Part shown: one piece after another, positions 30,836-32,386 of the stretch
Layout of the letters: every line of letters begins with the position of its first letter
Numbering within the stretch: the stretch's first letter is position 1
DNA from: a virus
Strand: one strand, 5' to 3'
Virus record (IMG/VR): IMGVR_UViG_3300045988_122072
Location: 64,001-128,000 of that record
Length of the DNA: 64,000 nucleotides
The notes under the pieces: model-generated
The model's database searches: none
The model's input: only the letters and a program-made list of their open reading frames with translations
Told to the model about the DNA's origin: nothing
Translations under genes and position numbers: made by a program

Positions 30836-32386
30836 ATGTCTTTTATGAATGCAGTAAAGAATACTCTGAACGAGGATTTCAACTATTCGGTGACTGAGAA
30901 TGGTGCTCTTGGGTATCGTACTTCTGGCAAAGAACTGACTGACCTAAACTTTGCCGTTGCTTCTATGCGCGGTATGAACGAGAAGACCATCTATGATAAG
31001 TTCACGAAGGCTTATTTCGAAGACAAGATGATGGCTTTACGTTGGTTATTTTTCGCAAGAGATGTTCGTGGCGGTCTTGGCGAGAGACGTTTGTTCAGAA
31101 CGGTTCTTAAAAATATGGTAAAGGACGACCCCAATACTGTTAAACGTCTTGCCTGTCTGGTGAGCGAGTATGGCCGTTATGATGACCTGTGGTGTCTGTT
31201 TGGAACGGATGTGGATGGTGTTGTTTTCGATATCATTAAGAAGCAGCTTTCTGATGACATCGCAAATATGGCAGAGAATAAACCCGTATCTCTTCTTGCT
31301 AAGTGGCTCCCTTCCGTAAATGCTTCTTCTACAAGAACTAAGATGAATGCAAGATATATTTGCAAGAATCTTAGTATGACTGAGCGTGAGTATCGTAAGA
31401 CACTTTCTTCTCTTCGTTCTTACATTGATATTGTAGAGAGCAAGATGTCTGCAAAGAAGTGGGAAGACATTAAGTATGAAACGGTTCCTTCTCGTGCAAA
31501 TCTCATTTATAACAGAGCTTTCCTTCGTAATGATGAGGAGCGTCGCAGAGAGTATCTGAGTAAGCTCGAAAATGGTGAAGCTAAGATTAATGCGGGAACT
31601 TTGTTTCCTCACGACATTGTGCATAAGTATTCTAGCACAACTGGATGGGGCTGCCGCGTCAACGAGTACGATGCAACTCTTGAATCTCTTTGGAAGGCTT
31701 TGCCTGACACAGTAAATGGGTGTGGAAACACCATTGTAGTCGCAGACAGTTCTGGCTCTATGTGTTGCAATATTGGTGGAAATACTCATATTGCAGCACT
31801 TGAAGTTGCGAATGCACTTGCAATTTACTTTGCAGAACATTCTTCTGGTGACTTTAAGGATAAGTACATTACTTTCTCTAGCAGACCTCAATTGGTTGAT
31901 TTTAGTCAGTGCAATTCTCTAAGAGATAAGCTTCGTGTTGCATATAGTCATAGTGAGTGTTCAAATACGAACATTGAAAAGGTGTTTGATTTGATTCTTA
32001 CTACTGCGGTAAATGGTCATATGAAGCAAGAGGATATGCCTAAGAATGTACTGATTATTTCAGACATGGAGTTTGACTCCTGTGCAACTTGTGGTGGTAA
32101 TGGGTATGGTCTTAATAGACCTAGTGCAAGACTTTTTGAGACAATTAAGAAGCGTTTTGAGGATGCTGGGTATCAAATGCCTAGATTAGTCTTCTGGAAT
32201 GTAAATTCTCGCACTGGAACTATTCCTGTAAAGGAAAATGACCTTGGTGTTGCTCTTGTTAGTGGATTCTCCACTAATGTTTGCAAGATGGTCATGAGTG
32301 GTAAGACCGATCCTTATGAGTGCCTTGTTGAGACGCTTATGAGTGAGAGATATGATGCGGTGGAAGCCGCATTGAAGAACTTTTAA
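30836..32386 (+). CDS. Ro60-like protein: DUF2828/TROVE-like helical N-terminal region plus C-terminal VWA domain
   Basis: Start ATG 30836 behind RBS ATGGAGGAAAG. N-terminal VTENGALGY and LRWLFFARDVRGGLGERRLF; VWA MIDAS VVADSSGSM. Family names are from memory. Confidence 0.6.
   Translation: MSFMNAVKNTLNEDFNYSVTENGALGYRTSGKELTDLNFAVASMRGMNEKTIYDKFTKAYFEDKMMALRWLFFARDVRGGLGERRLFRTVLKNMVKDDPNTVKRLACLVSEYGRYDDLWCLFGTDVDGVVFDIIKKQLSDDIANMAENKPVSLLAKWLPSVNASSTRTKMNARYICKNLSMTEREYRKTLSSLRSYIDIVESKMSAKKWEDIKYETVPSRANLIYNRAFLRNDEERRREYLSKLENGEAKINAGTLFPHDIVHKYSSTTGWGCRVNEYDATLESLWKALPDTVNGCGNTIVVADSSGSMCCNIGGNTHIAALEVANALAIYFAEHSSGDFKDKYITFSSRPQLVDFSQCNSLRDKLRVAYSHSECSNTNIEKVFDLILTTAVNGHMKQEDMPKNVLIISDMEFDSCATCGGNGYGLNRPSARLFETIKKRFEDAGYQMPRLVFWNVNSRTGTIPVKENDLGVALVSGFSTNVCKMVMSGKTDPYECLVETLMSERYDAVEAALKNF

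Follow-up and report, generated by a model that had tools for sequence, protein, structure and literature searches.

A phage DUF2828/DUF7788 protein with a Ro60-like predicted fold and a recurrent helix-ACAGCAA RNA motif beside the genes of its family

The window analysed here is a stretch of 64,000 nt of viral DNA (positions 64,001 to 128,000 of the IMG/VR record IMGVR_UViG_3300045988_122072). The subject of this report is a gene at its positions 30836 to 32386, which codes for a DUF2828/DUF7788 protein of 516 amino acids (aa), together with the small RNAs encoded upstream of it on the same strand. An earlier note on this DNA, made from the letters alone, had read the gene as a phage version of Ro60 within an island of tRNAs and other non-coding RNAs. 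Ro60 and its Y RNAs are a classic yet poorly understood RNA-surveillance system. To our knowledge work on the bacterial and phage versions of Ro60 has until now concerned TROVE-domain proteins and the YrlA motif, and we know of no established ligand or mechanism for the DUF2828 family. Taken alone, the protein is an ordinary addition to an already annotated family, and the main new result lies on the RNA side, where the heptamer ACAGCAA is found beside DUF2828 genes. It is probable, in our view, that the Ro60-like DUF2828/DUF7788 protein has the helix-ACAGCAA RNAs as its Y-RNA-like ligands and forms with them a ribonucleoprotein particle (RNP) that acts in infection; both the binding of these RNAs by the protein and the function of the RNP are what we infer. 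The gene and the elements upstream of it are as follows.

30248..30275, + strand: sigma-70-type promoter (TTGACA, 16-nt spacer, TG-extended TATAAT; 12/12 consensus matches)
30341..30464, + strand: tRNA-like RNA A, with acceptor, D and T arms and an insert of ~52 nt in the anticodon-arm region (Rfam tRNA model, 48.7 bits)
30473..30590, + strand: tRNA-like RNA B, with D and T arms and an intact Asn-like anticodon arm CUGGU-CUGUUAA-ACCAG (Rfam tRNA model, 42.6 bits)
30597..30651, + strand: hairpin HP1, stem AAGGCACUA/UGGUGCCUU, loop opening with the variant GCAGCAA (30606); closing-stem score 8.5
30662..30729, + strand: hairpin HP2, stem GAGACGCU/GGCGUCUC, with ACAGCAA (30671-30677) opening an AU-rich loop
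30745..30798, + strand: hairpin HP3, stem AAGACAC/GUGUCUU, with ACAGCAA at 30754-30760
30836..32386, + strand: gene of the DUF2828 + DUF7788 protein, 516 aa ('Ro-like RNA-binding protein', PHROG 850)
30836..31723, + strand: N-terminal all-helical domain, residues 1 to ~296, DUF2828 (AlphaFold model, full-length Foldseek alignments)
31724..32383, + strand: C-terminal von Willebrand factor A-like (vWA) domain, DUF7788, with a complete metal ion-dependent adhesion site (MIDAS) of D304, S306, S308, T378 and D410 (hhalign, profile search of the PDB)

The open reading frame (ORF) on the + strand extends from 30797 to 32386 and yields 529 aa if begun at TTG. The ATG at 30836 is preceded by GGAGG (30823-30827), gives 516 aa and agrees with the start MSFMNAV of the homologs. 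All three motifs quoted in the earlier note are present in this protein, VTENGALGY at residues 19-27, LRWLFFARDVRGGLGERRLF at residues 69-88 and VVADSSGSM, which contains the DxSxS motif of the MIDAS, at residues 301-309. In an alignment of 134 diverse homologs the five MIDAS residues are invariant, thus the site is complete, and there is little or no variation at residues of the TENG and RDxRxGxGER motifs. The assignment to DUF2828 in the earlier note turned out to be right: Pfam PF11443 scores 122.4 bits (cut-off 29, E 2.9e-35) and PF25043 (DUF7788, vWA-like) 158.8 bits (cut-off 27.1, E 1.6e-46). PHROG 850, 'RNA-binding protein', matches residues 4-507 (E 3.9e-142), while the NCBIfam scan of the 516-aa protein gave no match.

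The family is large. An exhaustive HMMER search found 6,965 clusters at 50% identity with E ≤0.001 and 2,738 with E ≤1e-30. According to tblastn, it is present in 710 of 50,697 phage records, 706 of which cover at least 80% of the query, with hosts including E. coli, Mycobacterium, Salmonella, Vibrio, Listeria, Staphylococcus, Campylobacter, Enterococcus and Bacillus; at 43% identity to the window protein, no closer match exists among these records. Existing annotations of family members read 'Ro-like RNA binding protein', 'RNA-binding protein' or 'DUF2828 protein'. The nearer relatives (60-92% identity) belong to metagenomic phages of 150-170 kb, and further ones to prophage-like regions of gut Clostridia, chiefly Lachnospiraceae and Oscillospiraceae (52-66% identity, isolates included; loci L101-L180). 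Structural matches in BFVD add DUF2828/DUF7788 proteins of giant eukaryotic viruses (Pithovirus, Mimiviridae, CroV, Marseillevirus), and members reportedly occur in plants as well. The DUF2828/DUF7788 family is very common in tRNA-rich phages and prophages, and the window protein is another member of this annotated, mechanistically uncharacterised family with a Ro60-like fold.

The AlphaFold model computed from the 134 diverse sequences reached a predicted local distance difference test score (pLDDT) of 94.7 and a predicted template-modelling score (pTM) of 0.93. It superseded a first model from a shallow alignment (pLDDT 75.9), for which Rsr and human Ro60 ranked top at a template-modelling (TM) score of ~0.4. 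A Foldseek search of the PDB with the final model returned just four significant matches, all of them Ro60/TROVE structures aligned over the full length: 9kop, 9nep (9nep_A) and 1yvr with TM-scores of 0.53-0.58, and 9nen with 0.41-0.42 (E 9e-8 to 1e-5). The remaining PDB matches span the vWA domain alone (TMq ~0.2). Entry 9kop ('Crystal structure of the Trove domain', TM 0.53/0.58) may be phiRo60, the Ro60 protein of a Thermus phage, to judge from its title and release date. At the sequence level hhalign aligned the C-terminal domain with vWA_Ro60 over 168 columns (93.7%, E 2e-7). A broad family profile searched against all PDB sequences ranked Ro60 first (1yvp, 9nen) with marginal E values of 0.012-0.014; PDB sequence searches with the single protein or a narrow family profile gave nothing relevant, and the Pfam scan of the protein gave no TROVE match.

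The full-length Foldseek matches to Ro60/TROVE alone, together with the Ro60-type vWA profile, speak for the Ro60-like architecture proposed in the earlier note; a generic VWA protein devoid of a TROVE-like ring is not what the profile and structure searches returned. In the predicted structure the protein shows the two-part plan of Ro60: alpha-helical repeats that resemble the HEAT-repeat ring of Ro60 make up the N-terminal half, and the vWA domain with its MIDAS comes after them. Judged by its profile, the C-terminal domain is a vWA of the Ro60 type. The protein is Ro60-like in fold and lies by sequence outside the TROVE family (PF05731 + PF25045).

The aberrant tRNAs and hairpin RNAs that had been noticed upstream of the gene are indeed there, as two insert-bearing tRNA-likes followed by three hairpins. 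No terminator-like site was found between the promoter, which matches the consensus at every position, and the DUF2828 gene. This implies that tRNA-likes, hairpins and gene would share one transcript. The insert of tRNA-like A, which was detected by ARAGORN in intron mode and is conserved in relatives, comprises a local hairpin (GUGUCU-AGCU-AGACAU), then GA, then ACAGCAA (30402-30408). For tRNA-like B our own reading is that an insertion of ~44 nt with ACAGCAA (30529-30535) sits between the D and the anticodon arms. The heptamer is thus common to the inserts of both tRNA-likes and to the following hairpins, with four copies of ACAGCAA and one GCAGCAA variant within 30402-30760. In the rest of the 64-kb window ACAGCAA is found four times on the + strand, where 4.2 copies would be expected, and never on the - strand. 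Relatives carry the HP1 unit with ACAGCAA in place of GCAGCAA. HP3 ends 25 nt before the ribosome-binding site of the gene.

Since ARAGORN in intron mode puts the insert of A into the anticodon loop, and an Rnl1-like ligase and a polynucleotide kinase are among the phage proteins, A and B might be regarded as real tRNA genes with short protein-spliced introns. An unnamed endonuclease would cut these out, polynucleotide kinase (Pnk) and Rnl1 would seal the exons, and ACAGCAA would be the intron signal. The inferred anticodons are, however, erratic among near-identical relatives (Gly tcc/gcc/acc, Arg or Pro), the loop of A would carry C33 instead of the usual U33, and B has an intact anticodon arm with its insertion elsewhere. 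Moreover, ACAGCAA also stands in free hairpins and in permuted YrlA-like mimics of other phages. Intron-bearing tRNAs were therefore judged unlikely in the extreme. Another candidate, a weak YrlA match at 30418-30526 (26 bits), was rejected as it runs from the 3′ half of tRNA-like A into the 5′ half of B. A permuted reading was dismissed for the window because the two acceptor strands that would have to pair are not complementary; its tRNA-likes follow the standard tRNA order.

The association of the heptamer with the gene extends to the relatives. In 83 related IMG/VR loci ACAGCAA occurs 474 times on the strand of the gene (+) and 30 times on the other, with a peak of 206 copies in the 500 nt 5′ of the gene. 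The upstream 1.2 kb of these loci contain 185 insert-bearing tRNA-likes, 146 of them with ACAGCAA; among the controls, coding and shuffled sequence yielded no such element, and the 23 of the downstream 1.2 kb all lack the motif. A second comparison covered 12 independent phage lineages, and the phages compared share no nucleotide similarity. Within 600 nt of the DUF2828 gene they have 27 copies on the strand of the gene versus 0.92 expected (Poisson 4e-30) and no antisense copy, and all lineages but one (11 of 12) contribute to this count. Likewise, 58 loci from bacterial genomes hold 129 copies versus 5.8 expected. The individual lineages are arranged as follows.

Listeria LMSP-25: three units in the 395-nt gap upstream of the gene
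Bacillus Tsamsa: two units upstream of the gene
Enterococcus ZJGS2: two units and an ACAGCGA variant upstream of the gene
Campylobacter NCTC12673: two units upstream of the gene
Aeromonas LAh_6: three units and a GCAGCAA variant upstream of the gene
Mycobacteriophage Nicholas: three units in the 380-nt gap downstream of the gene
Staphylococcus BE22: three units downstream of the gene
Felixounavirus EC6: four units among the first tRNAs downstream of the gene
Vibrio phi-Grn1: one hairpin in the leader (L096 2455-2500), its stem GACAUU/AAUGUC enclosing the Shine-Dalgarno sequence and including the start codon
Sinorhizobium phiM7: one hairpin in the leader (L098 2450-2490), 42 nt before the start codon

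A unit consists of the 5′ strand of a stem, 0-3 nt, ACAGCAA, a loop of 12-104 nt and the 3′ strand of the stem. A stem of at least 6 bp (6-9 bp) closes 25 of the 27 copies, and its sequence is different each time; 34% of 2,400 random positions attain that stem score (Mann-Whitney 7e-12). Free hairpins of the window clade have a closing strand downstream in 92% of 166 unique cases. Where the motif belongs to a tRNA-like, 58% of cases have a local tetraloop hairpin as the preceding helix instead, versus 12% of controls. A DNA promoter element as the nature of ACAGCAA was ruled out by the covarying stems, the strict strand specificity and the location in tRNA-like transcripts 3′ of a perfect promoter. 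In Bacillus Tsamsa the two hairpins upstream of the gene are separated by a GC-rich, apparently structured region of ~300 nt (L004 3530-3830), for which no Rfam family reached its gathering score.

Several of these positions would suit a cis operator. If the helix-ACAGCAA elements were operators alone, the protein would autoregulate via its own leader or mRNA and have no Y-RNA-like partner in trans. The single hairpin of phi-Grn1, whose stem around Shine-Dalgarno sequence and AUG suggests translational autoregulation, the lone unit of phiM7, and the concentration of units in the 500 nt 5′ of the gene in the window and its relatives all fit with this. The units of Nicholas, BE22 and Felixounavirus nevertheless sit downstream of the gene or between tRNAs, many lineages have 2-4 copies, and several units contain complete tRNA-mimic modules, for which an operator has no need. 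Operators alone are in our estimation rather unlikely, and this explanation, too, implies that the protein binds the motif, as does the RNP with ligands in trans that we favour.

The association was also tested in the reverse direction by searching IMG/VR with the 16-mer AAGACACWWACAGCAA, which gave at least 120 loci. Among the matches listed, 26 of 120 have a DUF2828 homolog in the fetched stretch, in all cases on the same strand and at a median distance of 530 nt, and of the 94 without a nearby DUF2828 gene 68% fall within ORFs of 100 aa or more and seem to be coincidental hits in coding sequence. Among the matches listed, 8 of 10 that are intergenic, have a stem of at least 7 bp and have at least 3 kb of sequence on both flanks were near a DUF2828 gene, versus 3 of 29 unstructured ones. 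The numbers are small and the direction is clear. In giant viruses the protein family has been found, the RNA motif not yet. A contig assigned to a giant virus in IMG/VR (GVMAG-M-3300017963-53; L182 157-714) has three copies of the 16-mer within 560 nt at its end, and the RNA motif may reach eukaryotic giant viruses.

Some of the units contain more than a hairpin. Their long loops hold a T arm, an acceptor-like stem-loop and a D arm, as in Enterococcus (3454), Nicholas (5553), EC6 (7364), LAh_6 (60) and RSP15 (4757). Bacterial YrlA is defined by just such a permuted arrangement of tRNA parts (Chen et al. 2014, PMC4201824). The Rfam YrlA model matches beside the DUF2828 genes of Enterococcus (47.8 bits, E 1e-7, and 34.4 bits) and Nicholas (37.9 bits, E 8e-5), below its gathering score of 69. 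In these alignments it is the tRNA-mimic module that matches, and ACAGC(A/G)A is found shortly before the start of the model; the 5′ Rsr-binding segment with the canonical Ro-binding motif GNCGAAN0-1G is not conserved in them. The layout of the window clade would be a circular permutation of the YrlA-like one, with its ends at the acceptor stem like those of a real tRNA and with the basal helix capped by a loop.

The DUF2828 loci thus resemble those of Ro60/Rsr and the Y RNAs YrlA and YrlB (PMC4201824) in several respects. The two-domain plan of a helical repeat and a MIDAS vWA domain is the same and the predicted fold matches; same-strand small RNAs flank the genes, some with a putative tRNA-mimic module; and linkage to RNA repair is shared, since the RtcB ligase encoded 1.3 kb downstream of the DUF2828 gene in Listeria phage LMSP-25 echoes the bacterial arrangement rsr-yrlBA-rtcBA. 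They differ in the protein families, TROVE/vWA_Ro60 there versus DUF2828/DUF7788 here with no profile similarity between the helical domains, and in the RNA motif, which is GNCGAAN0-1G in Y RNAs and helix plus ACAGCAA in the DUF2828-linked RNAs. Furthermore, the tRNA mimic of YrlA is permuted, whereas that of the window is in normal tRNA order.

Real tRNA genes are regular neighbours of the family. At least one tRNA lies within 3 kb of the gene in 76 of the 83 IMG/VR relatives, every one on the strand of the gene. Unrelated isolates show this linkage too. The Felixounaviruses EC6 and Bas63 have the gene followed by more than 20 tRNAs (23 in EC6), in Bacillus Tsamsa 21 tRNAs precede it, and in Listeria LMSP-25 and Enterococcus ZJGS2 tRNAs also come before it, in ZJGS2 together with a transfer-messenger RNA. 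The genes of Campylobacter NCTC12673, Ralstonia RSP15 and Herelleviridae phages are likewise linked to tRNAs. Among the tRNAs ~1 kb upstream of the gene of LMSP-25 there is also a match to the ROOL RNA (L003 2473-3024; 88.5 bits versus a gathering score of 99.1, E 1.7e-16).

A member of the family has a reported function. Bas63 gp130 shares 38% identity with the window protein across 492 aligned aa (E 9e-97), and its gene, in another phage with another host, lies directly upstream of a tRNA array. In the PhageMaP preprint gp130 is described as structurally Ro60-like and as counteracting the Ppl defence, and the authors speculate that some of the tRNA genes near gp130 might be Y RNAs, with no RNA motif named (PMC11482910). 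Cluster L mycobacteriophages provide further relatives, known from annotation and a toxicity screen alone. Nicholas gp54 is a homolog with 37% identity, followed by the three ACAGCAA units, one of them YrlA-like. LeBron gp53, a 472-aa protein annotated 'Ro-like RNA binding protein', was scored cytotoxic when overexpressed (score 2 on a 1-3 scale), and the same phage has genes for a polynucleotide kinase and an RNA ligase (PMC13148394). From the shared annotation, its size and the cluster L membership, gp53 appears to belong to the DUF2828 family.

True TROVE proteins of phages form a separate group. Twenty-two phages with Ro60 homologs and neighbouring Y-like RNAs were reported by Chen et al. 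2014 (PMC4201824). In phages of cluster C, for example Bxz1, the TROVE type takes the place of DUF2828; Bxz1 gp220 is a true phage Ro60 (TROVE + vWA_Ro60 by Pfam), and no ACAGCAA adjoins its gene. The ring protein phiRo60 of Thermus phage phiLo, the structure of which is solved, binds host PNPase and the RNAs Yrl1 and Yrl2 encoded directly upstream (PMC12135203). It is similar to the present case as a phage-encoded Ro60-type protein with Y-RNA-like genes close by, but it is a true TROVE protein, its RNAs have a CGAA motif, and binding has been shown for it, whereas for the DUF2828 family it is proposed. The literature search on DUF2828 found no phage paper. No description of the ACAGCAA RNA motif was found in the literature searched, the coverage of which was incomplete, so that an earlier description elsewhere is possible.

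Protein and motif could also be unrelated. The motif would then be a processing, antitermination or nuclease signal of tRNA and non-coding RNA operons, and the protein would be an inhibitor acting at the protein level, for instance by blocking Ppl via its vWA/MIDAS face. This would explain that gp130 is active in T7 without the RNAs of Bas63 and that motif units are found in or beside tRNA arrays. Besides, 2 of the 10 well-flanked structured units among the matches listed have no DUF2828 gene within 3 kb. The motif, however, follows the gene and not the array: the four units of EC6 all lie within the first 1 kb past the gene, while the array measures 4.3 kb, and relatives with downstream tRNAs still have their motifs upstream, beside the gene. 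In addition, the TROVE-type locus of Bxz1 bears tRNAs and lacks an adjacent motif, and the association spans 12 lineages of unrelated genome architecture. We consider an unrelated protein and motif improbable and retain the pairing of the DUF2828 protein with helix-ACAGCAA RNAs.

A number of observations weigh against this pairing or against its likeness to Ro60. By hhalign the helical domain gave E 0.72 against TROVE and E 0.14 against a broadened TROVE alignment (actinobacterial, phage and vertebrate Ro60), neither of them significant. Assignment of the helical domain to TROVE by sequence found no support in these two comparisons, and the homology of the helical half rests on the predicted structure. 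Accordingly, the likeness of DUF2828 to TROVE stated in the earlier note held for the predicted structure and not for the profiles, in which no similarity of the helical domain was detectable. As judged from the model, the helical half either diverged past sequence recognition or converged on the Ro60 shape. On the functional side, transfer of Bas63 gp130 on its own to T7, or its supply on a plasmid, is enough for plaquing on Ppl to be restored (PMC11482910), hence at least the anti-Ppl activity needs no cognate phage RNA. As to the RNAs, tRNA-like B has no clear helix 5′ of ACAGCAA, and single-sequence folding gave weak z-scores for both tRNA-likes (-1.2 for A and -1.4 for B). Ralstonia RSP15 has no copy within 600 nt of the gene and one ~950 nt downstream, and some structured motif units are more than 3 kb away from any DUF2828 gene. 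Finally, the lone hairpins of phi-Grn1 and phiM7, in the 5′ untranslated region or over the start codon, fit a purely cis-regulatory role.

Downstream of the gene a 2.6-kb non-coding island carries six standard tRNAs and the following elements.

32399..32428, + strand: short conserved hairpin region GGUGCUGGGCAUCACC..GCUGCCC, at the same position in the related locus L007
32435..32762, + strand: tRNA-Leu(UAA) with a predicted group I intron (exon 1 32435-32468, intron 32469-32709, exon 2 32710-32762, which encodes CCA)
32763..33044, + strand: conserved non-coding block of 282 nt between tRNA-Leu and tRNA-Asp, 95% identical in several relatives
33045..34842, + strand: tRNA array (Asp, Asn, Ile(UAU), Gln, Gly, Lys)
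33378-33434: candidate for a hepatitis delta virus (HDV)-like ribozyme (Rfam HDV-F-prausnitzii, 33.5 bits versus a gathering score of 44, E 0.002)

The '0.65-kb structured RNA' that had been proposed to follow the stop codon is therefore only partly borne out: conserved non-coding sequence does begin ~13 nt past the stop, but it is composite and not one RNA. The Rfam model Intron_gpI matches over its full length (41.9 bits, E 2.3e-8; below the gathering score of 50). The 241-nt intron lies between anticodon-loop positions 33 and 34, the 5′ exon ending with U and the intron with G, and ARAGORN recognises the joined segments 32435-32468 and 32710-32762 as an 87-nt tRNA-Leu(taa) with CCA. L007, which is 91% identical, has an intact, different tRNA-Leu(UAA) gene at the corresponding position. 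Because it is absent from every other related locus fetched, the intron looks sporadic or mobile. The core of the 282-nt block (query positions 116-236) is present in 19 loci; the block had no Rfam match and an insignificant folding z-score of -1.2. The ribozyme candidate starts at the last two bases of the 96-nt tRNA-Ile(UAU) (33284-33379), within a segment 95% conserved in L007, and resembles the 'theta ribozymes' that are described as adjoining tRNAs in gut phages (PMC10879173). Two more non-coding blocks between the tRNAs, 33435-33885 and 33960-34280, are conserved in 3-6 loci and have no Rfam match. Together with 32763-33044 they may represent further non-coding RNAs, and the 179-aa ORF at 33492-34031 is probably spurious.

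The repair genes named in the earlier note (Rnl1-like ligase, polynucleotide kinase and Thg1-like gene) are present 8-14 kb past the stop codon of the DUF2828 gene, in a region with these members.

40338-41444, + strand: Rnl1-like RNA ligase
41710-42519, + strand: nucleotidyltransferase
43107-44033, + strand: polynucleotide kinase + HD (phosphohydrolase)
45132-46058: radical-SAM-like 'Fe-S oxidoreductase' ORF
46061-46894, + strand: Thg1-like 3′-5′ polymerase

Other genes of the window were recorded as well. A second vWA-like protein with a MIDAS-like motif (DVTGSMG; phrog_2971) is encoded two genes upstream of the DUF2828 gene, in the pair 27798-28661 / 28655-29824. Its partner in this pair is a divergent homolog of adenylosuccinate synthetase (Pfam Adenylsucc_synt), which bears a PurZ-type label in PHROGs yet scores 27.7 against the NCBIfam PurZ cut-off of 300. 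The pair is syntenic in the relatives L007 and L008, and Bxz1 encodes such a synthetase, too. The window also carries a TnpB (OrfB_IS605 / Cas12f-like) gene and a split ribonucleotide reductase (51124-52236; 54802-57526), the large subunit of which consists of two ORFs (54802-55629 and 56087-57526) separated by a 457-nt gap that might hold an intron. A tyrosine integrase is encoded at 59854-61005. The integrase and the relatives in gut Clostridia suggest a temperate phage of gut Firmicutes.

Taken together, the system is best described as being of the Ro60/Y-RNA type, in which a DUF2828 protein would have helix-ACAGCAA RNAs, some of them tRNA mimics, as its partners. The RNP proposed in the earlier note gains independent support from the RNA motif, which is conserved next to the DUF2828 genes of many lineages of phages. 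In the mechanism that we propose, the gene would be transcribed from the strong sigma-70 promoter together with small RNAs that bear a helix, 0-3 nt and a single-stranded ACAGCAA. These RNAs would be the cognate ligands of the protein, equivalent to Y RNAs, with the simple hairpins corresponding to YrlB-like and the tRNA-mimic forms to YrlA-like RNAs. As the tRNA mimic of this clade is in normal order, RNase P and RNase Z could free it from the transcript. The RNP might then act on RNA in infection, by surveillance of tRNAs or structured RNAs beside the Pnk, Rnl1 and Thg1-like repair enzymes, and/or it might neutralise host defence, as reported for Bas63 gp130 and Ppl. A role in RNA repair or quality control, as already suspected in the earlier note, would be in line with this.

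On a wider scale, DUF2828 proteins and helix-ACAGCAA RNAs may constitute an unrecognised and very widespread class of Ro60/Y-RNA-like RNPs with a heptamer of its own, a generalisation for which we see the arguments as evenly balanced. The class would be found in phages of Gram-positive, Gram-negative and actinobacterial hosts as well as in gut prophages, the associated RNAs would comprise everything from minimal hairpins to permuted or normally ordered tRNA mimics, and it would protect the tRNA pools of phage or host or disarm defences. An invariant heptamer at a fixed structural position beside the gene in unrelated phages amounts to a directly testable ligand hypothesis for a family that is far commoner in phages than the TROVE-type Ro60. 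The motif could also explain the location of these genes in tRNA islands, the recurring 'aberrant tRNAs' and the interference of gp130 with host defence, and it could allow annotators to recognise a new class of phage non-coding RNAs that is now missed or mislabelled by tRNA finders.

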